Positions 1 to 38,720 of a DNA stretch of 38,720 nt are shown here, piece after piece. The DNA comes from a virus. Position numbers and translations under genes: made by a program. The number at the start of each line of letters is the position of its first letter. The stretch's first letter is position 1. The DNA is taken from the IMG/VR virus record IMGVR_UViG_3300021963_000007. One strand, written 5' to 3'. The notes beneath the pieces are model-generated. The model did not search any database, was not told where the DNA came from, and worked only from the letters and a program-made list of their open reading frames with translations.

Positions 1-127
1 GTTCGGTGTCGGTGGCGCGTGACTGACGTGACGCATTGTTCCGGAAACTTTTCTCGGCGTGTGACGCAAATGACGCATTGTTCCGGAAACTTTTCCCGGG
101 ATGATGCGCCGTTTTCGGCCGTGTGTG
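1..127. repeat. Terminal direct repeat, left copy, identical to 38594..38720. It marks circular closure or terminal redundancy of a 38,593-bp unit
   Basis: Base-for-base comparison gives 127/127 identity with 38594-38720. The last CDS (stop 38613-38615) therefore also ends at 20-22. Confidence 0.95.
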
Positions 128-142
128 ACGCAAATGACGCAT
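29..142 (+). repeat. Two longer direct repeats that carry the iterons: a 25-mer at 29-53 and 71-95, and a 20-mer at 59-78 and 123-142
   Basis: The 25-mer is TGACGCATTGTTCCGGAAACTTTTC and the 20-mer is GTGTGACGCAAATGACGCAT. Both pairs are exact copies, read directly. Confidence 0.9.
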
Positions 143-143
143 C

Positions 144-172
144 TGTGACTCATTATTTTGTGATGAGTCACA
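144..172. repeat. Inverted repeat TGTGACTCAT-N9-ATGAGTCACA in an AT-rich stretch
   Basis: The 10-bp arms at 144-153 and 163-172 are perfect reverse complements. Confidence 0.85.
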
Positions 173-240
173 CTTAAGTGGTTGAATGCAATGAGAAATA
201 AACGCCTGTGACTGAAATGACGCATTTTTAGACAAGTTTG

Positions 241-280
241 GTGTGTACGCGCGCGCGCCCGCGCTCGCGCGCATGTGTGG
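241..280. repeat. Alternating purine/pyrimidine GC-rich tract (GTGTGTACGCGCGCGCGCCCGCGCTCGCGCGCATGTGTGG) between the two opposed iteron arrays
   Basis: Read directly. The composition contrasts with the AT-rich flanks. Confidence 0.7.
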
Positions 281-323
281 AGCGGTTTAATGTCGGAAAT
301 ATGCGTCATTTGCGTCACAGAGG

Positions 324-329
324 GATAAT
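324..329 (+). promoter_or_regulatory. Possible -10 hexamer GATAAT upstream of terS. The expected -35 position is occupied by TGCGTCA repeats
   Basis: GATAAT lies at 324-329 and no good -35 hexamer sits 16-18 nt upstream. The repeats at 302-317 overlap that position, so an activator-dependent promoter is only a guess. Confidence 0.25.
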
Positions 330-415
330 TAGCCGATGAATCAAGAAGATAGGTGTGACGGACTGGCCGAAATATGCGTCACAGATGCGTCACATGCGTC
401 ACAGAGGAGGGTTTT

Positions 416-937
416 ATGGCTGGACGGCTGAAAACGCGGGTCGGGTTGGTTACGCTGGCCCACAAACGCGATGAGGTGAGGGAGTTGCTTGAGGCTGGTA
501 CTCCGCTGCCCGATGTGGCCAAGCAAATGGACGTGCCATATCAGGCGCTGACCAAGTGGCTTGATCAGACTGAGCAAGCGGGGCTATACGCGCGAGCTAG
601 GGAAAAGGCGGCGGACCTGCTTGCCACTGAGACGCTGGCCATAGCGGATGACGTGCTGGGTGAGGTGGCGCGCGACCGGCTGCGCGTGGACGCGCGGCGC
701 TGGCTCGCCGGCCGCTGGGACCCGACCCGCTTCGCGGACCGGGCCGGCGTTGCCGTGCAGGTCAACCTCGGCGACCTGCACCTGACCGCTGTCAAGGCCA
801 GCGCGGAGGCCCTGACGCACGAGCCTGACAGGCCCGTGTACGAGCCTGACACCGAAGGCCTGACAAGCCCGGCGCCTGAGCCTGACGCGGTCCCTGAGCC
901 GCGGCGCCGACGCGCCCCGAAGGCGCCCCGCGCCTGA
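416..937 (+). CDS. terS: Terminase small subunit (HTH type), 173 aa
   Basis: Frame of track ORF 374..937. The ATG at 416 lies 5 nt after GAGGAGG (404-410). The product has an N-terminal HTH-like segment. It also carries the YARAREKAADLLA...RDRLRVDARRWLAGRWDPTRFADR signature that I recognise from HTH-type small terminases. Confidence 0.7.
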   Translation: MAGRLKTRVGLVTLAHKRDEVRELLEAGTPLPDVAKQMDVPYQALTKWLDQTEQAGLYARAREKAADLLATETLAIADDVLGEVARDRLRVDARRWLAGRWDPTRFADRAGVAVQVNLGDLHLTAVKASAEALTHEPDRPVYEPDTEGLTSPAPEPDAVPEPRRRRAPKAPRA

Positions 938-1041
938 GCTCCCGGCGCCCGGGCGCCGAGGCCCCCCGGGCCCGGCCCCGGCCGGGGGCGCGGCTGGTGC
1001 AGAGGCCCACACCCACCGCCAAAAAAAATTGCACCACCCTA

Positions 1042-1070
1042 TTGCTAGTGTGTCGCGCTACCTCTACACT
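1042..1070 (+). promoter_or_regulatory. Sigma70-like promoter P1: TTGCTA-17 nt-TACACT
   Basis: -35 at 1042-1047, -10 at 1065-1070, 17-nt spacer. The -10 and leader are nearly identical to P2 and P3. Confidence 0.65.
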
Positions 1071-1105
1071 ACTCCTCACTGACCAACGCAACCGAGGACC
1101 CGCAC

Positions 1106-1342
1106 ATGACCACCGAGCAAATGGAACGCATGTTAGAGAACCGCTTCAGCCGCCGCTGCCTCGCCGAGGACCGCGCGATGTCCCGCCGCGAACGGCTGGA
1201 AGCCCGCGCCGAAAAGCTGATTGGCGAGCTCTGCCGCGACGGCCGCACCGTCTACTACGTCGTTCAGACGAACGGCAAGGTGCGTGAGGCCAACTGGAAG
1301 TCCGATTTGGTCGACTTCCTGATCCGTCGCAAGTACGTCTAA
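1106..1342 (+). CDS. Hypothetical early protein (78 aa), first gene behind P1
   Basis: Track ORF. The ATG lies exactly 3 nt after the conserved CCGAGGACCCG (1092-1102). No family recognised. Confidence 0.75.
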   Translation: MTTEQMERMLENRFSRRCLAEDRAMSRRERLEARAEKLIGELCRDGRTVYYVVQTNGKVREANWKSDLVDFLIRRKYV

Positions 1343-1349
1343 CCCGGCC

Positions 1350-1369
1350 GGGGAGGGGCGACCCTCCCC
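1350..1369 (+). other. Intergenic GC hairpin GGGGAGGG-GCGA-CCCTCCCC without a U-tract
   Basis: Perfect 8-bp stem read directly, located between two early genes. Confidence 0.5.
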
Positions 1370-1404
1370 CACCACCCTGTAACCGAGAAACCGAGGACCC
1401 GACT

Positions 1405-1812
1405 ATGAAGACCAAAACAGCCTACGAATGGGCGCTTGAGACCGTCACCACCGACGACTTCAACGACATCTTGGATGTCTGGCACCACGACTCGCTGGCC
1501 GACTTCTCCGACGACCAGATTCGCCGCGTGTTGAGCGGCGAGCGCTTCACCGTGGACGGTGGCGCCGCGGGCCCGCTTGAGGTGCGCTACGAACTGGCGC
1601 TGACCAAGCGTCGATATGAGCGCCTGCCGACCACTATCCTGTCCACCGGCAAGCCGGGCGAGGACATGCTCGACCTGCTCGACATCGGCTACGCCTACGT
1701 CGGGAACGAAGAACCCGGCCAGCTTCCGGCCGAGTTCGACGAGGCGCCCGGTAAGGTCCCGGCGCGATTTAAGGCCGAGCTCGCGAAGCGAATCGCGCGC
1801 TTGAAGCCCTGA
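1405..1812 (+). CDS. Hypothetical acidic early protein (135 aa)
   Basis: Track ORF. CCGAGGACCCG at 1391-1401 lies 3 nt before the ATG. D/E-rich, no family recognised. Confidence 0.75.
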   Translation: MKTKTAYEWALETVTTDDFNDILDVWHHDSLADFSDDQIRRVLSGERFTVDGGAAGPLEVRYELALTKRRYERLPTTILSTGKPGEDMLDLLDIGYAYVGNEEPGQLPAEFDEAPGKVPARFKAELAKRIARLKP

Positions 1813-1834
1813 CCCCCGGCCGCGGGGCAGGGTG

Positions 1835-1863
1835 TTGACGCCCTGTCCCGCGACCTCTACACT
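1835..1863 (+). promoter_or_regulatory. Sigma70-like promoter P2: TTGACG-17 nt-TACACT
   Basis: -35 at 1835-1840 and -10 at 1858-1863. The -10 and leader CCTCTACACTACTCCTCAC...CAACCGAGGACCCG are shared with P1. Confidence 0.7.
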
Positions 1864-1895
1864 ACTCCTCACCAACCGCAACCGAGGACCCGCGC

Positions 1896-2333
1896 ATGAA
1901 CATCACCAGCCCCAGCCACGACCTCTTTCTCTCCTACGCCCGCCGCGCCGGCAAATGGTCGGCCATCGTGTACGTCGGCGGAAAACTGACAAAGTTCAAG
2001 GAGCTCAAGGAGCTCAAGCAGGCCGACCTGATCAGCACCGTCTCCGACCGCGGCAACGTGTACCTGCGGTTTACCCCGGCCGGCGTGGCCTACGCCCTTG
2101 AGAACGGGGTCGACCTCTGCGACGGCACGGTCATGCAGAACTACTTTGAGACCCTCAACGCCGCGCTGGAGGCCGAAGGCCTGCTCGATTCATGGGACTG
2201 CTCCAGCAGCCCGATTGCCCGCGGCGAGACCCGCCGCTGGACGTGGCAGGACGGCAGCCGCCACGGCCGCCAGTGCTCCGTGTACCGTGACGAGACCGGC
2301 CGCTACGAGCGCCCTGTCCACTACGCCCGCTAA
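1896..2333 (+). CDS. Hypothetical early protein (145 aa), first gene behind P2
   Basis: Track ORF with the conserved motif at 1882-1892. Confidence 0.75.
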   Translation: MNITSPSHDLFLSYARRAGKWSAIVYVGGKLTKFKELKELKQADLISTVSDRGNVYLRFTPAGVAYALENGVDLCDGTVMQNYFETLNAALEAEGLLDSWDCSSSPIARGETRRWTWQDGSRHGRQCSVYRDETGRYERPVHYAR

Positions 2334-2353
2334 CCGCAACCGAGGACCCGACA

Positions 2354-2689
2354 ATGGCCAAGACCATCCCCGACCTTAACCGCGCGCTGGCCAAGGCCGG
2401 CGCCCCCGTCACCCTGTACCGCGGCTACGGCTACCTGTACTACGTTTACGACGACGTGCCGGCCAACGTCTGGCAGGACCGGTCCATGCCGCTCTGCCAC
2501 TTCAAGCAGATGCCGTTCGTGTTCTGGCTGGAAGAGGGCCTGCGCTTCGCCGCCGAGGTCCGCGCACAGCGCGAGGCCCTCGCACAGCGCGAGGCGCGGT
2601 TCGCCGCCCTGATGGAGTACGACCCGGACGCCGACGAGGACGACGAGGACGACGAGGACGACGAGGACGACGAGGACGACGAGCCGTAA
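2354..2689 (+). CDS. Hypothetical early protein (111 aa) with a poly-acidic C-terminal tail (DADEDDEDDEDDEDDEDDEP)
   Basis: Track ORF with the conserved motif at 2340-2350. The tail is encoded by a perfect 9-bp repeat. Confidence 0.75.
   Translation: MAKTIPDLNRALAKAGAPVTLYRGYGYLYYVYDDVPANVWQDRSMPLCHFKQMPFVFWLEEGLRFAAEVRAQREALAQREARFAALMEYDPDADEDDEDDEDDEDDEDDEP
2633..2683 (+). repeat. In-frame 9-bp tandem repeat (GACGAGGAC), about 5.7 copies
   Basis: Read directly. It encodes the (DED)n tail and contains five internal GAGGAC Shine-Dalgarno-like strings. Confidence 0.9.
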
Positions 2690-2702
2690 GACTGCTGACG
2701 AT

Positions 2703-2741
2703 GGCCCGGGGGACCGGGCCGAAACACCGCCCCCGCGGTGT
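2703..2741 (+). other. Double stem-loop intergenic element, copy A: GGCCCGG-GGGA-CCGGGCC, then ACACCGC-CCCC-GCGGTGT
   Basis: Two perfect 7-bp stems at 2703-2720 and 2724-2741. A homologous element with compensatory changes lies on the minus strand at 27911-27947. Confidence 0.7.
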
Positions 2742-2767
2742 CCAGTCAACCAACCGAGGACCCGAGC

Positions 2768-2998
2768 ATGCCGAAGAAACCCCACCGCACCGTTTTTCAC
2801 TGGGCGTGGAACGCGGAGCCGCTGCAAGTCGACCCCAGCATGACCCGGAAGCGGGCTGCTATCCTGCTCCGGGACTGGCGCAGCAACCCGAACACGCGGC
2901 TGGAGCGCGTTGGCCGCGGGCGCTACCGGATCGAGATGGAAGGCGCCGGCTGCGCTGTTGCCACCATGACCATCGCCCGAGGACCCGACCATGCGTAA
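2768..2998 (+). CDS. Hypothetical early protein (76 aa)
   Basis: In-frame ATG 2768 inside track ORF 2738..2998. It was chosen because CCGAGGACCCG (2754-2764) sits 3 nt upstream. Confidence 0.7.
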   Translation: MPKKPHRTVFHWAWNAEPLQVDPSMTRKRAAILLRDWRSNPNTRLERVGRGRYRIEMEGAGCAVATMTIARGPDHA

Positions 2999-3173
2999 AT
3001 CCCGTTACCGCGGCCCAATGGCCGTCTGGCACCGCCCCACCCCGCTTTGGCAGCGCGCCCTGCGGTGTGTCTTCGAGGTGGTCGGCGTGGTGGGCCTGAT
3101 GCTCGCCCTGCTGTTCCTGCTGGCCGCGGCGCCACACATCGATGCATGGGTCATCGGGAACCGGCCGTGGTAG
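2991..3173 (+). CDS. Small membrane protein (60 aa, one hydrophobic helix VVGVVGLMLALLFLLAAA)
   Basis: Track ORF with the motif at 2977-2987. It overlaps the upstream gene by 8 nt. Confidence 0.65.
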   Translation: MRKSRYRGPMAVWHRPTPLWQRALRCVFEVVGVVGLMLALLFLLAAAPHIDAWVIGNRPW

Positions 3174-3388
3174 CCCGGCGCCCCAGCGGCTGGCACCGGG
3201 AGTCTCGCCGGCTCGGCGCCGCGATGGGCTGGCGGACCTGCGCGACGTGCGGCGAGCGCAAGCGCTCGGATGCGTTCTACCCCCACCCTGACACCCCGGA
3301 CGGCATTAGCCCGGACTGCAAGGCCTGCGAGGGCTACTGGATGGCGACCGGGCACATCCGCCCGCGGCGCCGGGAGCCCGCAAAATAA
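3167..3388 (+). CDS. Small zinc-ribbon protein (CATCG...CKAC); the start is uncertain (GTG 3167 or ATG 3224)
   Basis: Frame of track ORF 3047..3388. GTG 3167 follows GGGAA and overlaps the upstream stop. ATG 3224 has no Shine-Dalgarno sequence. Two CxxC pairs are present. Confidence 0.5.
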   Translation: MVARRPSGWHRESRRLGAAMGWRTCATCGERKRSDAFYPHPDTPDGISPDCKACEGYWMATGHIRPRRREPAK

Positions 3389-3402
3389 ATTGCGGGGAAG
3401 TG

Positions 3403-3431
3403 TTGACGGCATGGCGGGCAATCTCTACACT
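3403..3431 (+). promoter_or_regulatory. Sigma70-like promoter P3: TTGACG-17 nt-TACACT
   Basis: -35 at 3403-3408 and -10 at 3426-3431. The leader CTCACCAACCGCAACCGAGGACCCG is identical to that of P2. Confidence 0.7.
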
Positions 3432-3463
3432 TCCCCTCACCAACCGCAACCGAGGACCCGACC

Positions 3464-3733
3464 ATGAGCAAGCCCGACCTGATTCGCCAGACTTTGCTGG
3501 ACCACTTCATTGAGACCGGAAAGCCGCTGCTGATCAGCGAGCTGGTAACGATGTGCAAGGCCAGCCGCCAGACCGTCAAAGACGCCATCTGGGACCGCTC
3601 CTACGACTTCGACTTTTGCGACATTGAGGTGTGGAGCGGCAGCAGTTGGAATGGCCGCTACCGCGTTTGCCAAGGCGCGCAGCCGTCCCGCCGGTATCTT
3701 GCCAGCATTATCAAAGCCGCCCGCGGCGCCTAA
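3464..3733 (+). CDS. Putative winged-helix DNA-binding protein (89 aa)
   Basis: Track ORF with the motif at 3450-3460. The N-terminal segment IRQTLLDHFIETGKPLLISELVTMCKASRQTVKDAIWD looks like an HTH. Confidence 0.6.
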   Translation: MSKPDLIRQTLLDHFIETGKPLLISELVTMCKASRQTVKDAIWDRSYDFDFCDIEVWSGSSWNGRYRVCQGAQPSRRYLASIIKAARGA

Positions 3734-3747
3734 CCGAGGACCCGACC

Positions 3748-4419
3748 ATGAGCACCTACGGCTACATCCGCGTCAGCACCGCCGAGCAGGCGGACGGCAC
3801 CAGCCTCGACGAGCAGCGCCGCCAGATTGCCGGCAACGCGATGGCGCACGGCCTCGACGTTACCCAGTGGGTCGAAGACGCTGGCGTCTCCGGCTCGCTG
3901 CCGTTCGTTGACCGTCTGGCCGCGCACGGTGTCGAGCCGGTCCGCGGCGACACCATCATCGTCGCGAAGCTGGACCGCTTCAGCCGTGACCTGCGCGACG
4001 CGCTGAACACGGTCCACGGCTTCAAACAGGCCGGCGTGCGCCTGATCGTGAACGGCCACGGCGACGTGACCGACGACAGCAACATCTACGCCCGCCTGAT
4101 GCTCGAAATCCTGTGCGCCTTTGCCGGCCATGAGCGCCGGGTCATCAAGGACCGTCAGAAGACCGGCCAGCGCAACAAGCGCGCGCAGGGCGGCCACATC
4201 GGCGGCAGCGCCCCGTTTGGCTACCGCACCATCGGCCACGGCCGCAGCGCGACGCTGGAGGCCATCCCGGAGCAGCAGGCGGCCATCGCCACCATGCTGG
4301 CCCTGCGCGCCACTGGCGCGAGCCTGCGGGCCATCAGCGCGGCTGTGGAGGCCCAGCACGGCCTCAAGGCCAGCCATGAGGCCGTGCGCCGCGTCCTGCG
4401 CGAGGCAGGCGCCTTGTAG
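3748..4419 (+). CDS. Small serine recombinase (resolvase/invertase family, 223 aa)
   Basis: In-frame ATG 3748 of track ORF 3631..4419, with the motif at 3734-3744. It has the N-terminal YGYIRVSTAEQ catalytic-serine signature, KLDRFSRD, and a C-terminal HTH-like segment (GASLRAISAAV). Confidence 0.85.
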   Translation: MSTYGYIRVSTAEQADGTSLDEQRRQIAGNAMAHGLDVTQWVEDAGVSGSLPFVDRLAAHGVEPVRGDTIIVAKLDRFSRDLRDALNTVHGFKQAGVRLIVNGHGDVTDDSNIYARLMLEILCAFAGHERRVIKDRQKTGQRNKRAQGGHIGGSAPFGYRTIGHGRSATLEAIPEQQAAIATMLALRATGASLRAISAAVEAQHGLKASHEAVRRVLREAGAL

Positions 4420-4442
4420 AGGCCCTGCGCCCCGGTCACACT

Positions 4443-4468
4443 AAGGCACCCCCCGCGGTGCCTTTTTT
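4443..4468 (+). terminator. Intrinsic terminator: AAGGCACC-CCCCGC-GGTGCCTT, whose last two stem bases begin a T6 run
   Basis: The 8-bp stem spans 4443-4450 and 4457-4464. The T run spans 4463-4468 and ends immediately before the terL ATG. Confidence 0.8.
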
Positions 4469-5878
4469 ATGTCCATGCCCAACCCGTTTGTCACGTTCCT
4501 GCTCACCTACCGTAACGACCCGGTGGCGTTCGTTGTCGACGTGCTCGGCGTCGAGCCCGACGACTGGCAGAAGGACTTCCTGCGCGCGGTGGCGGCCGGG
4601 CATCGCCGGGTCAGCATCCGGTCCGGTCACGGTGTGGGCAAATCAACCGGCGCAAGCTGGGCCATGCTCTGGTATCTGCTGACTCGCTACCCGGTCAAGA
4701 TCGTGGTGACGGCGCCCACCAGCAGCCAGCTTTACGACGCCCTGTTCGCCGAGGTGAAGCGCTGGGTCAAAGCGCTGCCCCCCGCGCTGGCTGACCTGCT
4801 CGACCCGAAGCAGGAGCGCATCGAACTCAAGAGCAGCCCCACCGAGGCCTTCATCAGCGCGCGCACAAGCCGCGCAGAGCAGCCAGAGGCCTTGCAGGGC
4901 ATTCACAGCGACAACGTGATGCTGATCGCCGACGAGGCCTCTGGCGTGCCCGAGCAGGTGTTCGAGGCCGCGGCCGGGTCGATGTCCGGGCATGCGGCCA
5001 CCACCATCCTGCTGGGCAACCCGGTGCGCAGCTCTGGGTTCTTCTACGACACCCACCACCGGTTGTCGTCGGAGTGGTGGACGCGCCGGGTGTCCTGCGC
5101 CGACAGCCCCCGCGTGAGCCCGGCCTATCTGGCCGAAATGCAGAGCCGCTACGGCGAGGAGTCGAACGCATACCGGGTCCGCGTGCTGGGCGAGTTCCCG
5201 CGCAGCGACGACGACACCATCATCCCGATGGAGCTGCTGGAAGCCGCCATCCATCGCGATGTAGCGCGCAGCGACGTGGCGCAGACCGTCTGGGGGCTGG
5301 ACGTGGCGCGGTTCGGCAGCGACTCCAGCGCGCTCTGTAAGCGCGCAGGGAACGCTGTGCTGGAGCCTGTGCGCCGCTGGCGGGGTCTGGACCTGATGCA
5401 GCTCACGGGCGCCGTGGTGGCCGAGTATGAGGCCCTGTCGCATGAGGAGCGGCCGGTCGAGATACTGGTCGATTCCATCGGGCTTGGCGCCGGGGTCGTG
5501 GACCGGCTGCGCGAACTCAACTTGCCGGCGCGCGGGATCAACGTCAGCGAGTCCCCGGCGATGGGCGGGACCTACCGCAACCTGCGCGCCGAGCTCTGGT
5601 ACAAGGCCAAGGCGTGGTTCGAGAAACGCGACTGCAAGCTGCCGAAGGACGAGCAGCTCGTGTCGGAGCTGGCCACCGTGCGTTACAAGTTCAGCAGCAA
5701 CGGTAAGACGCAGGTGGAAGGCAAGGACGAGATCCGGCGCCGCGGTCTGGCGTCGCCCGACCTTGCCGATGCGTTTGTGCTCACGTTCGCCTCTGATGCC
5801 GCTACGGTGACCTACGGGGCGTCGTACAACTCCCCGTGGTCGAAGCCTATCCGCCGGGCCATCCCGCGTCTTGCGTAA
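4469..5878 (+). CDS. terL: Terminase large subunit (469 aa)
   Basis: Track ORF. It has the Walker-A-like SGHGVGKST, the ATPase stretch VMLIADEASGV, and a C-terminal nuclease-like region. Its position upstream of the portal gene also fits. Confidence 0.85.
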   Translation: MSMPNPFVTFLLTYRNDPVAFVVDVLGVEPDDWQKDFLRAVAAGHRRVSIRSGHGVGKSTGASWAMLWYLLTRYPVKIVVTAPTSSQLYDALFAEVKRWVKALPPALADLLDPKQERIELKSSPTEAFISARTSRAEQPEALQGIHSDNVMLIADEASGVPEQVFEAAAGSMSGHAATTILLGNPVRSSGFFYDTHHRLSSEWWTRRVSCADSPRVSPAYLAEMQSRYGEESNAYRVRVLGEFPRSDDDTIIPMELLEAAIHRDVARSDVAQTVWGLDVARFGSDSSALCKRAGNAVLEPVRRWRGLDLMQLTGAVVAEYEALSHEERPVEILVDSIGLGAGVVDRLRELNLPARGINVSESPAMGGTYRNLRAELWYKAKAWFEKRDCKLPKDEQLVSELATVRYKFSSNGKTQVEGKDEIRRRGLASPDLADAFVLTFASDAATVTYGASYNSPWSKPIRRAIPRLA

Positions 5879-5926
5879 TCCTGCGCGCGCTGTGGTACGC
5901 TTCCGCCATCGATTTGAGGGCCTACC

Positions 5927-6085
5927 ATGAAGAAGTCGAAGATGCAAGCCAAGGTCGGCAAGGTAATGCACGAGTTCAAGGGCGGCACGCTGCATTCCGG
6001 CAAAGGTGGGCCCGTGGTCAAGAGTCCGAAACAGGCCATCGCCATTGCGATGAGCGAGGGCCGCAAGGCCGCGAGGAAAAAGTAA
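5927..6085 (+). CDS. Small conserved basic protein (52 aa, MKKSKMQAKVGKVMHEFKGGTLHSGKGGPVVKSPKQAIAIAMSEGRKAARKK)
   Basis: Not in the ORF track because it is under 60 aa. Translated by hand. GAGGG lies 6 nt upstream. The MHEFK..G.L.SG....V.S.KQAIAIA pattern matches a widespread small-protein family, from memory only. Confidence 0.65.
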   Translation: MKKSKMQAKVGKVMHEFKGGTLHSGKGGPVVKSPKQAIAIAMSEGRKAARKK

Positions 6086-14662: not shown

Positions 14663-14700
14663 CTTTCGAGAAATCTTTCAAGGTGCTTGAAGCCAGATAA
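14659..14700 (+). pseudogene. Remnant of an endolysin 5' end (MTFEKSFKVLEAR-stop)
   Basis: 14659-14688 matches the start of the intact endolysin (16841-16870) at 28 of 30 nt, including the ATGA junction. Homology ends after GTGCTT, and a stop follows at 14698-14700. Confidence 0.8.
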
Positions 14701-15509
14701 TGTTTTCCATCGCGCCATTTTCCGTAGCACCGTTTTCGTCGATTAGAATCGACAATCAGCTTGCGGCAAACGTTTCCGCCGTTGCGTCTGCTGCCGGCGA
14801 CTTGTCCACGTCCATTCAGCTTGCGGCGAACGTTTCCGCCGTTGCGTCTGCTGCCGGCGACTTGTCCACGTCCATTCAGCTTGCGGCGAACGTTTCCGCC
14901 GTTGCGTCTGCTGCCGGCGACTTGTCTACGTCCATCCAACTTGCGGCAGACGTTTTCGCCGTTGCGTCTGTTGCCGGCGACTTATCCACGTCCATCCAAC
15001 TTGCGGCAGACGCCTCCGCCGTTGCGTCTGTTGCCGGCGACTTATCCACGTCCATCCAACTTGCGGCAGACGCCTCCGCCGTTGCGTCCGCTGCCGGCGA
15101 CTTGTTTACGTTCAAGCCGATTGCGGCAGACGTTTATGCTGTTGCGTCAGCAAGTGCCACCTTAGTTTCCGCCGTATTGATAGACGGCAGCGCGCTGATT
15201 GTAGCTAGTGCTATCGCGCAGCTTGCCGAGGTTAGCGGGCCGGTAGACATTGCGGGCCCGGCAACTGTGTCGGGAAGCGCTATAGTTTTAATCGGCAGTG
15301 GTGAGTGTTCAGTTTACGCCGGAAGCGTTGCCACTATCCAATGGCTTCCCGTAATTGATACCGGCGAATCATGGGGCCCGATTGCAACGTCTGCGGCGAC
15401 TTGGACCCCCCAGACCGCGCCAATTGATCCGTGGACCGCGCAGGCGACCCCGGCCGAGACGTGGACCGCGCAAACAGTACCACCGGGCGGCTGGTCCGCC
15501 GCCGCATAA
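14700..15509 (+). CDS. Repeat-containing fibre-region protein (269 aa) with 20-aa tandem repeats and a Trp-periodic C-terminus
   Basis: Track ORF. The unit LAANVSAVASAAGDLSTSIQ recurs about 6.5 times. The C-terminus is WGPIATSAATWTPQTAPIDPWTAQATPAETWTAQTVPPGGW. Confidence 0.7.
   Translation: MFSIAPFSVAPFSSIRIDNQLAANVSAVASAAGDLSTSIQLAANVSAVASAAGDLSTSIQLAANVSAVASAAGDLSTSIQLAADVFAVASVAGDLSTSIQLAADASAVASVAGDLSTSIQLAADASAVASAAGDLFTFKPIAADVYAVASASATLVSAVLIDGSALIVASAIAQLAEVSGPVDIAGPATVSGSAIVLIGSGECSVYAGSVATIQWLPVIDTGESWGPIATSAATWTPQTAPIDPWTAQATPAETWTAQTVPPGGWSAAA
14757..15150 (+). repeat. 60-bp tandem repeat, about 6.5 copies, in frame
   Basis: Units are phased exactly with the 60-nt sequence lines 14761, 14821, 14881, 14941, 15001, 15061 and 15121. 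Copies 1-2 differ at 1 nt, and later copies diverge progressively. Confidence 0.95.
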
Positions 15510-26528: not shown

Positions 26529-26543
26529 CTCAGTGACTGAGCT
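26527..26543. other. Hairpin AGCTCAG-TGA-CTGAGCT at the convergence point of the structural block and the leftward operon
   Basis: Perfect 7-bp stem overlapping both stop codons (TAG 26526-26528 on + and TGA 26530-26532 on -). There is no U-tract on either side. Confidence 0.35.
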
Positions 26544-26823
26544 CAGCAATGGTTTTACGACACCCGGCCAGCACTGAACGCAACGTCGACAGTTGCCACC
26601 GGAGCTGTCTCAGCTCGCCCTGCAAATGCAGGATGCGGAGATCCTCTGGCAGCTCCATGCTCTGGTGCTCGCGCGCAGTGGCGCAAAACGAGCGGATAGC
26701 GTGCCAGACGTACTCCGGCGCCGGGTCAAGCGACAGCACCGCCGGGTCGAGGCCAAGGTATTGCGCGGCTTCAGCCGGCGTAGTGCTGCATCGTGCCAGC
26801 AGGCGGGTCACTCGTGCGTCCAT
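26530..26823 (-). CDS. Hypothetical protein (97 aa; alternative start 26847)
   Basis: Frame of track ORF 26530..26847. The ATG at 26823 follows AAGGGGGA and overlaps the upstream TGA as TGATG. The C-terminal part looks helical (LQGELRQLRWQLSTLRSVL). Confidence 0.6.
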   Translation of the reverse strand: MDARVTRLLARCSTTPAEAAQYLGLDPAVLSLDPAPEYVWHAIRSFCATAREHQSMELPEDLRILHLQGELRQLRWQLSTLRSVLAGCRKTIAELSH

Positions 26824-27095
26824 CAGGTCCCCCTTTTTGCGCGCCATTTGCGCTGGTATTCGGTTGGTGTTCTAGGGTCGGGCTTGTCCGCGTCGGGCAG
26901 GGCGCCCAGCGCGAACACCGGCATCGGGTATTCGCGTTCGCCCTCGCGGTCCCAGCGCAGGACGTACAGCAGCCCCTCGTCTCGGGCGTTGGAAATCAGC
27001 CGGGCAATGGTGCGTGGTGAGCACGCAAGCACTGACCGGAGCTGGACCGAGGTCATCGGCCCATGTTGTTCGATGGCGGACAGGACGCGGCTCAT
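26823..27095 (-). CDS. Winged-helix DNA-binding protein candidate (90 aa)
   Basis: This is the C-terminal 90 codons of track ORF 26823..27773. The ATG at 27095 is preceded by GGAG. The sequence MSRVLSAIEQHGPMTSVQLRSVLACSPRTIARLISNARDEGLLYVLRW has a typical wHTH layout. The upstream 226 codons of the track ORF are Arg/Pro-rich shadow sequence. Confidence 0.6.
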   Translation of the reverse strand: MSRVLSAIEQHGPMTSVQLRSVLACSPRTIARLISNARDEGLLYVLRWDREGEREYPMPVFALGALPDADKPDPRTPTEYQRKWRAKRGT

Positions 27096-27157
27096 GGGTG
27101 GCTCCGTAGGTTCGCCCGGGCAGGCGCCCGGGGCTGGTGTAGTGACTGGCCGCCATC

Positions 27158-27883
27158 CTAACCGCAGGTGTGGTGCTCGACAATCACCGAGGTGATTTTC
27201 GGGCGCTGGATAATGGTCTGCGGGACCCCCTCGCGCTCGCCGTGCTCTTTGACCGTGGCCTTCATGGTGACGCGGGTGCCGGCCTTGGCCGCGACGGTCG
27301 AGTAATGGTTCTCCACATGCCCGGAGTACACGCCGCGGTACGCTTTGCCTTCGGCATCGCGGGCCAGTTCGCGGTAAACCCACACGACTTGCTGCTGTAT
27401 CTCGGCCGCACCCTTGTATACAACGATGTTCCCCGCCGCGTCGCGCATGATGTAGATGTAAGCGGTTTCCATGCGCGCGCCATAGCCGAAGCCGGGGCGC
27501 TCGAACGTGTGGACGTGCTGCACGGTCAGCTCGAAGTCCTGACGCTGGCCCACGACGCCGACGTGGCCTTTGTCGAGGTCCGCCGCGATGCGCTGGGCCT
27601 TGCGCTCGACCTTGTCTCGCTCGCGATACCAATCGTCGACCATCATCTGCTCGACGCAGGCGACCTGCTTTTCGGACAGTTTGCCGTACTGGTCGAGCGA
27701 CCCGGCCAGCTTGCCGCAAAACTCGTTGCGACCTTCGTTCTCGATCAGCCAGTCGGTGACGTGGTTGGCCCACGCGTTAAACGTCTTGCGGGCGTTCATC
27801 AGGATGTTGCGCTTCACGGCCGCGCCATATGCGGCTTCGTTTTCGATCCACTTCTGGCCGGGAATGGGGAAGCGATTGCTCAT
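27158..27883 (-). CDS. Hypothetical early protein (241 aa), possibly with a C-terminal beta-barrel/OB-like domain
   Basis: Track ORF. The ATG lies exactly 3 nt after CCGAGGACCCG (complement of 27887-27897). The amino-acid composition is balanced. No family recognised. Confidence 0.75.
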   Translation of the reverse strand: MSNRFPIPGQKWIENEAAYGAAVKRNILMNARKTFNAWANHVTDWLIENEGRNEFCGKLAGSLDQYGKLSEKQVACVEQMMVDDWYRERDKVERKAQRIAADLDKGHVGVVGQRQDFELTVQHVHTFERPGFGYGARMETAYIYIMRDAAGNIVVYKGAAEIQQQVVWVYRELARDAEGKAYRGVYSGHVENHYSTVAAKAGTRVTMKATVKEHGEREGVPQTIIQRPKITSVIVEHHTCG

Positions 27884-27910
27884 GTTCGGGTCCTCGGTGT
27901 TGGTTGCTAG

Positions 27911-27947
27911 ACCCCGCGGGCGGGGTTTCGGCCGGGTCCCCCCGGCC
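27911..27947 (-). other. Double stem-loop intergenic element, copy B: GGCCGGG-GGGA-CCCGGCC, then ACCCCG-CCCG-CGGGGT
   Basis: Read on the reverse complement. It has the same architecture, the same GGGA loop and the same GAAAC linker as copy A (2703-2741), with compensated base-pair differences. Confidence 0.7.
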
Positions 27948-27958
27948 TCATCAGTAGC

Positions 27959-28195
27959 TTAAAACGGGCAGTCCATATCGACCTCAACGTCGGCAGCTTC
28001 CCACGCCTCGCATTGTTCGTAAAAACCGTCATCTTCCGGGTGACGAACCGCCGGGCCGGCGTAAAACGGGTTAGCCTGCCACGTGTCGTAATCCGTGAGG
28101 ATCCACGCCTGTTCAGGGCGCTCGCGACCGACGTTGCAAGCGTACTCACGGCAGGCATCATCTTCAGTGGCCAGTTGGTCGTGCGGGTAATTCAT
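27959..28195 (-). CDS. Small acidic early protein (78 aa)
   Basis: Track ORF, with CCGAGGACCCG (complement of 28199-28209) 3 nt before the ATG. Strongly D/E-rich. Confidence 0.75.
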   Translation of the reverse strand: MNYPHDQLATEDDACREYACNVGRERPEQAWILTDYDTWQANPFYAGPAVRHPEDDGFYEQCEAWEAADVEVDMDCPF

Positions 28196-28226
28196 GTTCG
28201 GGTCCTCGGTGTTGGTTGGTTCGGTA

Positions 28227-28255
28227 ATTGTCTGCTAGTAGAGATTGCCTGTCAA
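28227..28255 (-). promoter_or_regulatory. Leftward sigma70-like promoter PL: TTGACA-17 nt-GACAAT
   Basis: On the minus strand the -35 is at 28255-28250 and the -10 at 28232-28227. The flanking GTGTTGAC and GGCAATCTCTAC strings are shared with P3. The -10-to-ATG distance (31 nt) matches P2 and P3 (32 nt). Confidence 0.55.
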
Positions 28256-28281
28256 CACTTTTGTAGAGGTTGCGCTACAGT
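28252..28281 (+). promoter_or_regulatory. Tentative rightward promoter PR: TCAACA-18 nt-TACAGT, its -35 overlapping the -35 of PL
   Basis: TACAGT at 28276-28281 resembles the TACACT -10 of P1-P3. The -35 is a weak match (4 of 6). Confidence 0.35.
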
Positions 28282-28305
28282 GGTCCTGCTTTCCCTCCCT
28301 ACCTT

Positions 28306-28331
28306 GCCCCGGGTCACACCGGGGCGCTTTT
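28306..28331 (+). terminator. Terminator-like leader hairpin GCCCCGG-GTCACA-CCGGGGC followed by GCTTTT, upstream of the replication operon
   Basis: 7-bp GC stem at 28306-28312 and 28319-28325, with T4 at 28328-31. It lies between the putative PR and the first replication gene. Confidence 0.45.
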
Positions 28332-28357
28332 AGGGCAACCGCGAAACCGAGGTAATT

Positions 28358-32272: not shown

Positions 32273-32752
32273 ATGCCAGCACATCACAAACGCAGCGAGA
32301 CCGGAGTGGCCGCTGCGAATCCGCACAGCGGGCCCAGAGGCGGCGACGCCAGCTATCGGGCCTACTTCCAGACCGCCGAGCAATTCCAAGCCGCGATGAC
32401 CTTGGCCGCCCGACTTGAGGCCAAGGGCATGCCCCGCCGCGCGTGGCGGGTCCGGCTGAATCTTGATGGCCAGCAGCCGGTGTATTGCGCGCCGAAGGAC
32501 GACGAGGAAGACGATGCCGAGGACGAGAATGGCACCGCGCAACGCCCCGTCCGCACAATGTCTCTCGAGCTACTGCTGGAAGCGCAGGCCGAAATCAAGA
32601 AGCTGATAAAAAAGAGCCAACTATCTCACCGAAAACTTTCGGCTGAGCTCGGCGTTTCGCAGCAAACAGTCTCAAGTTGGAACAAAGGCGGATACATCGG
32701 CAAAGACTCGTTTGAAAAACTCAAAAAGTTCGTGGAGAGCATGAAGAAATGA
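32273..32752 (+). CDS. Two-part protein (159 aa): GC-rich N-terminal half, acidic linker, lower-GC C-terminal XRE-type HTH
   Basis: Track ORF. The variant motif CCGAGGACACG (32259-32269) sits 3 nt before the ATG. The C-terminal SQLSHRKLSAELGVSQQTVSSWNKGG is a canonical HTH. Confidence 0.65.
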   Translation: MPAHHKRSETGVAAANPHSGPRGGDASYRAYFQTAEQFQAAMTLAARLEAKGMPRRAWRVRLNLDGQQPVYCAPKDDEEDDAEDENGTAQRPVRTMSLELLLEAQAEIKKLIKKSQLSHRKLSAELGVSQQTVSSWNKGGYIGKDSFEKLKKFVESMKK

Positions 32753-33036
32753 GCAGACGTGCGACAGATTATTTAGCGCAAGCGAAGGCTGAAATGGAGG
32801 ACCGCGCGGCCAGCCGAGACACGCCAACCGGAGAGCGCTCGATGGCCAGAGCCGTGGCAGCTTTTAACACTCTCTACAATCATGATCTGACCGAGACAGA
32901 GGGCTGGCAGTTTATGTCCATTCTCAAAAAGGCGCGGGGCGCGCAGGGCGCATATCGGGAAGACGACTACATCGACGATGTCGCGTACGCAGCGCTTGCA
33001 GCCGAAAGCGCCAGCGGCGCAAGGGGGGAGAAATGA
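32749..33036 (+). CDS. Small conserved phage protein (95 aa; resembles the family I recall as DUF6378)
   Basis: Track ORF with an ATGA overlap. Characteristic pattern: ERSMARAVAAFNTLYNHDLTETEGWQFMSILKKAR...DDYIDDVAYAAL. Confidence 0.65.
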   Translation: MSRRATDYLAQAKAEMEDRAASRDTPTGERSMARAVAAFNTLYNHDLTETEGWQFMSILKKARGAQGAYREDDYIDDVAYAALAAESASGARGEK

Positions 33037-33197
33037 GAAACCGATACCCGGGCCAATGCTATGCCTGTGGTGCGACGGTCGAGAGGGGAGCTGGGCATTT
33101 TGAGCGCCACCTTGGCGGCTGGCGAACAATCCATGCGCCGTGCGCTATCAAGCAGCGGGCCGACAAAAACAAATCCGCGAAAGGGGGGAAGATATGA
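33033..33197 (+). CDS. Small zinc-ribbon-like protein (54 aa)
   Basis: Not in the track. Hand translation gives MRNRYPGQCYACGATVERGAGHFERHLGGWRTIHAPCAIKQRADKNKSAKGGKI. It has ATGA overlaps at both ends and AAGGGGGGAG upstream. Confidence 0.6.
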   Translation: MRNRYPGQCYACGATVERGAGHFERHLGGWRTIHAPCAIKQRADKNKSAKGGKI

Positions 33198-33367
33198 CAC
33201 GCGAAGAAATCATCCGGTTGGCGCGGGATGCTGGGTTTGATGCCCACGACATGTCCTCCGACTTTACCTGCAATTTGCAGGACATTGAACGCCTCGCCGC
33301 CCTTGTCGCCGCTGCCGAAAGGCAGGCGTTGAAAGAGGAGCAGCAACGCTGCTATGTCGCCAAATGA
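33194..33367 (+). CDS. Mini-protein, ERE-CA family member a (57 aa)
   Basis: In-frame ATG 33194 of track ORF 33140..33367, starting MTREEIIRLARDAGFD and containing LVAAAERQ. AAAGGGGGGAAG lies upstream. Confidence 0.6.
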   Translation: MTREEIIRLARDAGFDAHDMSSDFTCNLQDIERLAALVAAAERQALKEEQQRCYVAK

Positions 33368-33612
33368 ACCTTGAACAAATTGAAGAAATCATCGCTAAGA
33401 ATCTTACGATAACTGACCAACGTCTGATGGATGGAGTCATTGGCGCAGTGATGGATGCAGTCGCTGCCGAGCGCGAAGCGTGTGCGGGGATTTGCGACCG
33501 CCTAGAGCGGCGCTATGGGGGCAGCCCGGAACTTGAGCATTGGGCGCAGGGGTTCAAAAAAGGCGCATGTGTTAGCGCGGCGAAAATCCGCGCAAGGGGG
33601 AAAAATGTGTAA
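33364..33612 (+). CDS. Mini-protein, ERE-CA family member b (82 aa)
   Basis: Track ORF with an ATGA overlap. It contains AVAAEREACAGICD and ends AAKIRARGKNV. Confidence 0.65.
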   Translation: MNLEQIEEIIAKNLTITDQRLMDGVIGAVMDAVAAEREACAGICDRLERRYGGSPELEHWAQGFKKGACVSAAKIRARGKNV

Positions 33613-33757
33613 AAAACTGAGGGAAGCGGCGCAACACTTAATTAAGTGTTGGGATGACGAGGAAACGGCGACCAAGATCTTTGACGCCATAAACGCGCTG
33701 CGCGGCGCAGTGGCAGACGACAAAGAAAAGGCGATTCGCGCAAGGGGGCAGGAATGA
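33605..33757 (+). CDS. Mini-protein (50 aa) ending KAIRARGQE
   Basis: In-frame ATG 33605 of track ORF 33515..33757, with GCAAGGGGGAAAA upstream and an 8-nt overlap with the previous gene. Confidence 0.5.
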   Translation: MCKKLREAAQHLIKCWDDEETATKIFDAINALRGAVADDKEKAIRARGQE

Positions 33758-34092
33758 CTAGGGAAGAGATTTGTCAGCGTCTGGGCTGGATGACGTTGCC
33801 GAAAACGTCGGAAATGCTTGGGAAAACTCAGCACTCCGACATGTTAGACCGAATCGAAAAAATTGTGGAAGCGGCGGTGCTGGCCGAGCAGCAAGAAAAT
33901 TGCCCTATTTGCGAATGCGATTACCGGCAGAAAAATCTGGCGGCGGCGGTGCTGGCCGAGCGCGAGGCGTGCGCGAAGGCTGCGGAAGGCTACGCAGACT
34001 TTCAACTGCAACTGGGCGACGACCTCGCCCAGTGGAGGGCAATCGGCGCGTTGGCCGTGATGGCAGCAATTAGCGAAAGGGGGCAGGAATGA
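33754..34092 (+). CDS. Mini-protein, ERE-CA family member c (112 aa)
   Basis: Track ORF with an ATGA overlap. It starts MTREEI, contains AAVLAEREACAKAAE, and ends AAISERGQE. Confidence 0.65.
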   Translation: MTREEICQRLGWMTLPKTSEMLGKTQHSDMLDRIEKIVEAAVLAEQQENCPICECDYRQKNLAAAVLAEREACAKAAEGYADFQLQLGDDLAQWRAIGALAVMAAISERGQE

Positions 34093-34277
34093 ACCGCGAC
34101 GTCTGCGGCCAATGCGACGCGCCGGTTGAGTTGTGCCGGTGCGCCGCGCTGGTCGCTGCCGCCGAGCGCAAGGAGAGGGAGCGTTGCGCAAAAATCTGCG
34201 AGCAGCTACAGGACTGGCCCGAGGGCGCAACGCCATATGACTGCGCCAAAGCGATCCGCGCGGGGCGGCCGGTATGA
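34089..34277 (+). CDS. Mini-protein, ERE-CA family member d (62 aa)
   Basis: Track ORF with an ATGA overlap. It contains LVAAAERKERERCAKICE and ends CAKAIRAGRPV. Confidence 0.65.
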   Translation: MNRDVCGQCDAPVELCRCAALVAAAERKERERCAKICEQLQDWPEGATPYDCAKAIRAGRPV

Positions 34278-38615: not shown

Positions 38616-38720
38616 CTGACGTGACGCATTGTTCCGGAAACTTTTCTCGGCGTGTGACGCAAATGACGCATTGTTCCGGAAACTTTTCCCGGGATGATGC
38701 GCCGTTTTCGGCCGTGTGTG
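38594..38720. repeat. Terminal direct repeat, right copy, identical to 1..127
   Basis: 127/127 identity with the window start, read directly. Confidence 0.95.

Follow-up and report, generated by a model that had tools for sequence, protein, structure and literature searches.

A split terminase gene pair in an uncultured phage encloses a variable island of ORFan genes joined by repeated promoter-like, stem-loop and leader units

In T4-type phages, promoter-early stem-loop (PeSL) cassettes have been described that comprise the stop codon of the upstream gene, a GC stem-loop of variable placement, a sigma-70 promoter with an A/T tract, and the Shine-Dalgarno (SD) sequence and start codon of an orphan open reading frame (ORFan) (PMC2839356, PMC4122927). 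PeSLs mediate insertions and deletions between close T4-type relatives in hyperplastic regions (Arbiol et al. 2010, PMC2839356; Comeau et al. 2014, PMC4122927). In this study, we examined a viral DNA stretch of 38,720 nucleotides (IMG/VR record IMGVR_UViG_3300021963_000007; the whole stretch is hereafter called the window), in which terS (416-937) and terL (4469-5878) lie 3.5 kb apart. Nine plus-strand open reading frames (ORFs), g1 to g9, fill positions 1106-4419 of the gap, here called the island. It is likely that this gap is a hyperplastic accessory region of self-contained expression cassettes, which would evolve by recombination at repeated units. Comparison of the sequences of close lineages demonstrated gain, loss and replacement of single genes at these repeated regulatory units. 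The island and its borders are laid out as follows, with positions in the window.

416-937, plus strand: terS, left border (Pfam Sf6_terminase, 1.1e-17; PHROG 1482, 2.8e-19)
938-1041, plus strand: GC-rich hairpin block after terS (fold -60.6 kcal/mol, z -2.74)
1042-1105, plus strand: P1 cassette, predicted promoter TTGCTA, 17 nt, TACACT, and CA-rich leader with AACCGAGGACCCG
1106-1342, plus strand: g1, 78 aa, basic (PHROG 16256, 6.4e-22, no known function)
1343-1404, plus strand: promoterless cassette, hairpin 1350-1369 (GGGGAGGG/CCCTCCCC) and leader
1405-1812, plus strand: g2, 135 aa, acidic ORFan, isoelectric point (pI) 4.86
1813-1895, plus strand: P2 cassette, palindrome 1821-1852, predicted promoter TTGACG 1835-1840 and TACACT 1858-1863, leader
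1896-2333, plus strand: g3, 145 aa, fusion of two small-protein families (N part 1-77, C part 78-145)
2334-2353, plus strand: leader-only junction before g4
2354-2689, plus strand: g4, 111 aa, (DED)n acidic tail, pI 4.07 (PHROG 23727, 3.4e-11, no known function)
2690-2767, plus strand: double hairpin (closing stem 2690-2694/2743-2747, hairpins 2703-2720 and 2724-2741) and leader
2768-2998, plus strand: g5, 76 aa, basic ORFan, no family; among the other lineages in L386 only
2991-3173, plus strand: g6, 60 aa, one hydrophobic/transmembrane helix; in all four lineages
3167-3388, plus strand: g7, 54-73 aa, CxxC...CxxC zinc ribbon; in all four lineages, overlaps the g6 stop
3377-3463, plus strand: P3 cassette, hairpin 3377-3396 around the g7 stop, predicted promoter TTGACG 3403-3408 and TACACT 3426-3431, leader
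3464-3733, plus strand: g8, 89 aa, possible winged helix, gene of a variable slot
3748-4419, plus strand: g9, 223-aa serine recombinase (Pfam Resolvase PF00239, 2e-30, 106 bits against a cut-off of 23.3)
4443-4470, plus strand: predicted intrinsic terminator, 8-bp stem 4443-4464 and T6, abutting the terL start codon
4469-5878, plus strand: terL, right border, 69% identical to an annotated terminase large subunit

This layout agrees with a first-pass annotation made from the letters of the window alone, which had placed nine packed small genes between terS and terL; the Joint Genome Institute (JGI) gene calls on this contig agree as well. Its three promoters of identical geometry were recovered with a relaxed sigma-70 regular expression, which matched only 1042-1070, 1835-1863 and 3403-3431 on both strands of the whole 38.7 kb, each time with a 17-nt spacer and TACACT. 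A stricter promoter scan picked two of the three, against 0.5 expected by chance. Where direct repeats of roughly 50 bp had been claimed, we observed 34-71 nt: P2 and P3 share 71 nt at 83% identity, and P1, P2 and P3 share 34 nt at 76-88% identity. The GC hairpins between sub-operons also fold as described, at 938-990, 1350-1369, 1821-1852, 2690-2747 and 3377-3396 (1821-1852 being the strongest, z -3.8), and so does the terminator at the end. The gene-by-gene leader, the recombinase as an anchor of the gap and the reuse of the units outside the island had been overlooked.

The leader is a nearly invariant, CA-rich sequence ending in AACCGAGGACCCGnnnATG, with the SD core GAGG about 8 nt before the ATG. 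It heads eight of the nine island genes, the exception being g7. Its core 11-mer, CCGAGGACCCG, occurs in exactly eight copies in the island, each 3 nt before an ATG, and two further copies were found on the minus strand, at 27887 and 28199, heading genes one and two of a leftward operon. When one mismatch was tolerated, 13 matches were obtained against 1.55 expected.

Subsequently, the island was compared among close lineages. The 90%-identity cluster of the recombinase yielded three further complete or nearly complete islands (L386, L390 and L391) and a fragment (L003). Across these lineages the recombinase is 94-99.6% and TerL 97-99% identical, and the gene sets differ, as seen from the gene sizes (aa) in order from the terS side to the recombinase (rec):

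Window: 78-135-145-111-76-60-73-89-rec
L386: 78-245-66-85-76-60-73-178-rec
L390: 78-246-113-77-76-82-63-58-196-rec
L391: 78-159-63-58-85-63-rec
L003: ...73-rec

The junction units that stand before different genes in different lineages are P1, the GGGGAGGG hairpin with leader, P2, the double hairpin with leader, P3 and the bare leader. For example, the GGGGAGGG hairpin and leader are kept in 4/4 lineages before genes of 135, 245, 246 and 159 aa, and the P3 cassette of L386 and L390 precedes a different gene from that of the window (178 aa, and 196 aa in L390 by the JGI call). In accordance with this, blastn homology ends at the boundary of leader and g2 start (1413/1414), at the two edges of P2 (1815 and 1898), in the double hairpin (2688-2765), at the boundary of the P3 leader and ATG (3470/3471) and in the recombinase leader (3732). 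One breakpoint (about 2132-2151) lies within g3, which fits a g3 fused from two independent small-protein families. Around g8 there is a 22-nt direct repeat, ACCGAGGACCCGACCATGAGCA (3449-3470 and 3733-3754), consisting of the leader and ATGAGCA; g8 is missing in L003 and is replaced in L386, L390 and L391. L003, 89% identical at the nucleotide level, has a hybrid promoter, P3-type on the left and P2b-type on the right, joined at the shared GTGTTGACG (-35 box). Judging from these sequences, the hybrid is the expected product of a deletion between two promoters of an L386-like ancestor.

Promoter conservation was measured on alignments anchored on the -10 box, as the distance from the -10 box to the ATG is 31-36 nt and an ATG-anchored alignment is gapped. 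Five lineages supplied 15 promoter cassettes, which all keep the -35 TTG, the 17-nt spacer and ACCTCTAC, with differing spacer sequences; for P1, both hexamers are invariant in four lineages and the spacer is variable. An A8 tract (1021-1028) lies upstream of P1 at the position of an UP element, and an A/T tract is found at this position in all lineages and in a distant recombinase clade. The P2 palindrome forms a 14-bp stem, the loop and 3' arm of which contain the -35 box (-38 kcal/mol, z -3.8), and the P2-type stem is retained in six copies with one compensatory pair. The P3 hairpin lies upstream of the promoter boxes, and the position of the stem relative to the -35 and -10 boxes varies among cassettes. 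In the double-hairpin copies of L386, L390 and L391 the pairing is kept and the stem sequences differ. The terminator is conserved in L003, L386, L390 and L391, with loop changes and T6-T9.

If the lineage differences were assembly chimeras formed at the 30-70-nt repeats in mixed metagenomes, the turnover described above would be an artefact. Several contigs do end at cassettes: the end of L083 is at P2, and L003 begins shortly upstream of P3. However, the repeats are shorter than typical reads, and the variable genes are unrelated sequences, not one set rearranged. Furthermore, 23 contigs (37 index blocks) carry the exact TerS of the window, and 10/10 shown have its gene order; 19 contigs have an L391-type, 13 an L386-type and three an L390-type recombinase, and the places shown for each agree. 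Each arrangement thus recurs in independent samples and assemblers (JGI; MEGAHIT assemblies of the European Nucleotide Archive, ENA; Logan), which argues against chimeric assembly. We regard such an artefact as extremely unlikely.

The split of terS and terL was examined in more distant relatives. Among 77 IMG/VR contigs with a TerL about 77% identical, 75 could be judged upstream; terS abuts or overlaps terL in 75/75, and no recombinase is present. A relative with 85% TerL identity has a different terS, also adjacent to terL. These results bear out the earlier statement that the two genes are normally adjacent, and, as far as sequence comparison tells, the split is a lineage-specific insertion relative to a common adjacent state. 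The first-pass annotation had also proposed a recombination-prone accessory locus whose content varies between relatives, and the four close lineages, with breakpoints at promoter and leader units, agree with it. Its interpretation therefore stands as to insertion, variable accessory locus and ORFan cargo, and falls short in that the leader and the recombinase were missed.

These features closely resemble those of PeSLs: the stop codon of the upstream gene, repeated sigma-70-like promoters with an A/T tract upstream, a stem-loop of variable position, an end formed by the SD sequence and start codon of an ORFan, breakpoints within the units, and concentration of the units in a variable region. 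The differences are as follows. The island phage has a genome of 38.6 kb and 64% GC with SU10-type capsid and portal, whereas the T4-like phages have 170-250 kb. The island splits the terS-terL pair and has a serine recombinase gene as a fixed neighbour. Its most conserved part is the 20-30-nt leader, which also occurs without a promoter, giving leader-only and hairpin-plus-leader variants. Finally, promoter and terminator activity and excised mini-circles count among the traits of PeSLs, whereas the promoters and the terminator of the island are predicted from sequence. By analogy, the island can be called a PeSL-like hyperplastic region, but its phage, small and of high GC, is unrelated to the T4-type group. 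Single-gene turnover at copied promoter, stem-loop and leader units would then not be peculiar to T4-like giants, as the natural variants show, and here it is located at an unusual place, within the terminase gene pair. With about ten ORFans, four natural arrangements and known junctions, the island offers a compact test system for how phages acquire and try new early genes and for the functions of these genes.

The morons of lambdoid and other tailed phages are reportedly single in most cases, compositionally foreign and expressed from the prophage. Like morons, the island genes have their own predicted promoters and terminator and lie between genes that are adjacent in relatives. Unlike them, the nine genes share one family of control units, their composition is not foreign and no prophage state is known. 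Indeed, GC (0.60-0.73) and GC at third codon positions (0.81-0.95) take values also seen for terL, polymerase and primase; the nine genes differ in composition only by their slightly negative GC skew.

We propose the following mechanism. A cassette would comprise up to three elements: a GC stem-loop where the previous gene ends, a sigma-70-like promoter (TTGACG or TTGCTA, 17 nt, CTCTACACT) and a leader with AACCGAGGACCCGnnnATG. The repeated units of 20-70 nt would act as portable homology, because the same units precede unrelated genes. As the comparison of relatives shows, recombination between them deletes, inserts or replaces single genes, and the survivors would still be correctly expressed. 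Unmodified host RNA polymerase would read the cassettes, most likely as soon as infection begins; the stem-loops would attenuate read-through between units, the terminator at 4443-4470 would insulate the late operon beginning at terL, and the common leader would provide a strong shared translation start.

The units were also found outside the island, on the minus strand:

28255-28227, minus strand: promoter PL (predicted), TTGACA, 17 nt, GACAAT, and leader
27884-28255, minus strand: cassette set of PL and leader, 78-aa gene, double hairpin and leader (27958-27884), 241-aa gene

The element at 27958-27884 is a paralogue of 2690-2767, and the differences between them preserve pairing. Diverged copies of the leader precede a helix-turn-helix (HTH) regulator gene (32258) and a RuvC-like gene (28346; its leader, AACCGAGGTAATT, is such a copy). 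The leader pattern was also scanned for in metagenomes and gave 119 matches, mostly single and due to chance, with only L003 found again; in IMG/VR it gave only fragments of this phage. The PL set belongs to a divergent control region (26530-28357), whose leftward operon encodes proteins of 78 aa, 241 aa, 90 aa (MarR-like winged helix) and 105 aa. The strand opposite to this operon bears a terminator-like hairpin (about 28305-28326), followed by CGCTTTT, immediately ahead of the RuvC-like gene. A rightward promoter was sought before the RuvC-like and replication genes, and nothing convincing was found there.

Early timing of the island is plausible, because its sites and PL are the only sigma-70-like sites of the genome and the predicted terminator would insulate terL. 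Alternatively, the three promoters could be the main constitutive or activator-dependent promoters of the operon of terL and the structural genes, the small genes being morons and the terminator an attenuator. No other promoter-like site precedes terL, and terL has no SD sequence, its start codon lying directly at the end of the T-run of the terminator. In addition, some relatives have the recombinase, behind the post-terS promoter, in translational coupling with terL or at a distance of 41-44 nt with no intervening hairpin. On the other hand, a conserved intrinsic terminator was found between recombinase and terL in 5/5 close lineages, and the leader and a consensus TTGACA promoter head the leftward small-regulator operon beside the replication genes, a typical early position. 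The leader is not used by the structural genes, which have other, heterogeneous ribosome-binding sites. Hence, we consider control of terL by these promoters possible but unlikely.

Several observations nevertheless weigh against the proposed reading of the island as insulated early cassettes that recombine at their units. In L221 and L222 the recombinase overlaps terL, and in an L263-type clade 44 nt without a hairpin separate the two genes, so that in both the post-terS promoter probably also feeds terL; this weakens a strict early-only reading. A late promoter before terL was sought in the window, and nothing convincing was found, only a weak TTGTAG/CACACT. A U-tract is present only at the last hairpin, and covariation support for the hairpins is thin, with one compensatory pair per alignment. 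Promoter activity, timing and terminator function of the island are predictions, and all data come from metagenome assemblies. Moreover, selection for recombinants that are still expressed, rather than preferred crossover, could in part account for the position of the breakpoints at promoters. Regarding the weak site, its TTGTAG, 17 nt and CACACT lie over the stop codon of the recombinase, and its predicted start falls inside the terminator stem.

We next describe g9, which the family searches identify as a serine recombinase. In common with gamma-delta/Tn3 resolvase, Hin/Gin, TP901-1, CcrB and XisF, g9 has a Resolvase domain, the motif YxRVSTxxQ and an HTH-like C-terminal region; R8, S10, Q14, R77 and R80 do not vary among 12 homologues. 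In its catalytic domain, g9 is closer to large serine recombinases than to Tn3 or Hin, and its best matches are N-terminal parts of large recombinases. The best PDB E-value was 9e-11, and g9 is only distantly related to every characterised member. The recombinase, of about 222 aa, is represented by at least 277 IMG/VR contigs and at least 667 protein clusters. From the 277 IMG/VR stretches encoding a g9 homologue the best 80 were taken, and 79 (59-74% identical) were analysed. The order terS, recombinase, terL was observed in 65/65 informative loci, the other 14 being cut on the missing side. The gap from terS to the recombinase is 186-1782 nt, that from the recombinase to terL 41-3976 nt (27 nt for L221/L222), and the end of terS and the start of terL are 1.1-4.9 kb apart across the recombinase-bearing relatives. 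A separate terS-based scan of IMG/VR yielded three loci. No homologues of g1-g8 were found in the loci with 59-74% identical recombinases. Because the order is constant while these homologues are absent, the recombinase is the conserved feature that anchors the gap throughout a large clade, and ORFans fill two variable slots beside it. We know of no small serine recombinase or large serine integrase for which a fixed position between terS and terL is a feature, and this fixed position in a large clade is a separate, directly testable puzzle.

In the largest subclade, an A8T8 tract and a predicted promoter close to consensus, TTGACA with CATAAT 16 nt downstream, directly follow terS and precede the recombinase. 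P1 of the window has the same post-terS position and an A-tract, too. In the main recombinase clade (L228, 10630-12480), a conserved 58-aa HTH protein is encoded within one or two small genes downstream. The small ORFs of that clade overlap tightly, and no repeated junction motif was seen, so its variable slots are without PeSL-like units.

A further alternative is that the block is a lifestyle module, in which the recombinase serves as an integrase or as a multimer resolvase of a plasmid prophage and the cargo serves conversion or maintenance, or that the whole block is a selfish insertion. One clade has the recombinase and another lacks it at similar TerL identity to the window (70-81% versus 77%), and its catalytic domain resembles that of large serine integrases. 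An iteron-like array and a RepA/D5-type primase adjoin terS, and a CI-like HTH protein is encoded at 32273-32752. In contrast, no partition genes were seen, and the phage has a full lytic-type replication set (DNA polymerase A, primase-helicase, single-stranded DNA-binding protein and exonuclease). Large serine integrases possess zinc-ribbon and coiled-coil domains; g9, at 223 aa, has neither. In 185,579 species genomes, no close g9 homologue (>45% identity) was found integrated, and the close hits were only two contigs of metagenome-assembled genomes (MAGs), 525 nt and 3.2 kb long. An integrase role for g9 is thus unlikely, and we hold the lifestyle module as a whole to be improbable. The 3.2-kb contig (L305, CAZPTM010000201.1), with 61% recombinase and 73% TerL identity, was binned as Limnohabitans, which points weakly to the host group of a related phage.

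An invertase role of the Gin/Cin type was also rejected. Of the inverted repeats, only leader copies 24 kb apart involve the island, and the gene order is constant in all window-type contigs. The only dyad-symmetric site candidate near g9 is the P2-type palindrome, and nothing is conserved across clades.

In phage P1, a headful phage, recombination by Cre at loxP, near pac, circularises the first headful through its terminally redundant ends. Like cre, g9 is a site-specific recombinase gene kept beside the packaging start; Cre, however, is a tyrosine recombinase with loxP, whereas g9 is a serine enzyme, and no res, hix or att site was found for it. By analogy with P1, our leading guess is that g9 serves genome circularisation or multimer resolution beside the packaging start, because this fits the fixed position and the strong predicted promoter.

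We do not think that g9 carries out cassette exchange. In integrons, a tyrosine integrase, IntI, acts at attI/attC sites, and promoterless cassettes are read from one common promoter. The island has a similar arrangement, with its recombinase gene next to a row of small genes that are exchangeable and mostly ORFans. It was not identified as an integron, since the enzyme is a serine recombinase, the cassettes have their own predicted promoters and no repeated sites lie between the genes in the slots of relatives. Capture and excision of cassettes in an integron-like manner would require g9 to cut the TTGA centre of the palindrome with 13-14-bp arms over the P2-type -35 box. The dimensions of this palindrome are those of a recombinase core site (13+4+13 bp), the recombinase gene always lies beside variable slots, and in L386, L390 and L003 the palindrome is directly upstream of that gene, which recalls the placement of res next to tnpR in transposons of the Tn3 family. 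Three hybrid sites (L003_P, P3 and P2c of L390) are joined at the palindrome centre, which is equally accounted for by the 9-nt shared -35 box and selection for a working promoter. The leader, in which most breakpoints fall, is however no palindrome, and neither are P1 and P3; the P2-type palindrome is equally explicable as an RNA stem-loop. In other recombinase clades the slots are tightly packed, with no repeated inter-gene site and no palindrome at the recombinase promoter. Capture by g9 is therefore very unlikely, and its extension, in which the recombinase would be the enzyme of a gene-capture platform at palindromic -35 sites, a serine analogue of the integron at the packaging start of a large uncultured clade, is a long shot.

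Turning to the cargo, the nine products and the alternative cargo of the other lineages were searched against Pfam, NCBIfam and PHROGs. Apart from the zinc ribbon of g7, the cargo matched only PHROGs of unknown function. The first-pass view that none of the first seven products belongs to a recognised family was thus too strict as to matches (g1, g4 and g7 have PHROGs) and held as to function, the g1 and g4 PHROGs having none and g7 matching in the ribbon only. Its acidic (g2, g4), one-transmembrane (g6) and zinc-ribbon (g7) products were seen again from pI, helix and two CxxC pairs. No product matched a known anti-defence family or fold in the family searches or in the structure models of g2 and g3, and no match spoke for or against the host-takeover or anti-defence role proposed in the first-pass annotation. 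Taken together, the cargo proteins are lineage-restricted ORFans.

The gene g1 leads the set in all four lineages and is 81-90% identical in L386, L390 and L391. Its homologues form seven clusters, and 73 nt at 82% identity are shared with T4-like Sinorhizobium phages. For g2, only nine homologue clusters, all at least 59% identical, were found among 5.8 billion proteins; its slot holds an unrelated 245-aa gene in L386 (246 aa in L390). Each half of g3 matches stand-alone proteins of 60-130 aa (119 representatives), and its C-terminal half occurs alone in other lineages, with 66-77 aa in L386/L390 and as a divergent 85-aa form (59% identity) in L391. The model of the g3 C-terminal domain had a predicted local distance difference test (pLDDT) score above 94, and that of g2 a mean pLDDT of 89. 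Neither model gave an informative match in PDB or BFVD (best PDB E-values 1.2 and 0.1); the only match of the g3 domain was one uncharacterised viral protein. The tail of g4 is encoded by a 9-nt GACGAGGAC repeat (2626-2689), the copy number of which differs between samples (111 or 114 aa). The leader of g6 is located inside the 3' end of g5. The PHROG matches of g7 are the zinc-ribbon regions of endonuclease VII and Lar-like families (2e-8 to 1e-5), and the weak Lar-like match (9.5e-6) is limited to the ribbon.

As for the genome, bases 1-127 and 38594-38720 form an exact terminal direct repeat of 127 nt, and contig L083 is 99.3-99.7% identical to the window from 34086 across the end into 1-1839. 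The window accordingly represents a circle assembled to about 38,593 bp, and the end of the primase gene (stop at 38615) extends into the terminal repeat. Its JGI contig is Ga0222713_10000665, and the same phage is present in many further samples. The major capsid protein and the portal are of SU10 type. The gene order on the circle is as follows.

1-415: TGACGCA repeat array, followed by terS, the island and terL
After terL: SU10-type portal and capsid, tail genes and the remaining structural block, to about 26.5 kb
28.2 to 26.5 kb, minus strand: short leftward operon
Rightward: replication block with RuvC-like resolvase, SNF2 helicase, DUF2800 nuclease, Enc34-type single-stranded DNA-binding protein, DNA polymerase A and D5-type primase

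A megablast search of 1-6000 against 50,697 phage records gave no match. An uncultured phage from Manatee Spring comes closest among the records (TerL 69% identical); the closest GenBank relative has a 'Z-DNA-binding protein' annotated within its own terS-terL gap. Rfam at the gathering threshold gave zero matches in the window, and a tRNA search gave none.

Upstream of terS, direct copies of (G)TGACGCAAATGACGCA lie at 15-40, 57-82, 121-146 and 204-229, and inverted copies at 294-319 and 374-403. They bracket a 40-nt tract of alternating purines and pyrimidines (about 241-280), GTGTGTACGCGCGCGCGCCCGCGCTCGCGCGCATGTGTGG. From this layout, region 1-415 is a candidate for a pac site, a replication origin or a protein-binding array.

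A second type of repeated gene junction, GCGATTCGCGCAAGGGGGCAGGAATGA-like, was seen in four copies, at 33010, 33731, 34066 and 34251, where it connects small ORFs upstream of the DNA polymerase gene. Three of these small ORFs, and an overlapping ORF in another frame (33515-33757), have similar AIRARGQE-like tails. This region (33010-34277) may, by its repeated junctions, be another small variable region. In the structural region, the ORF at 14700-15509 contains seven tandem 60-nt units (14697-15236; 61-100% identical) that encode a repeated 20-residue motif, and GC around 12-15 kb is markedly lower (0.52-0.59).

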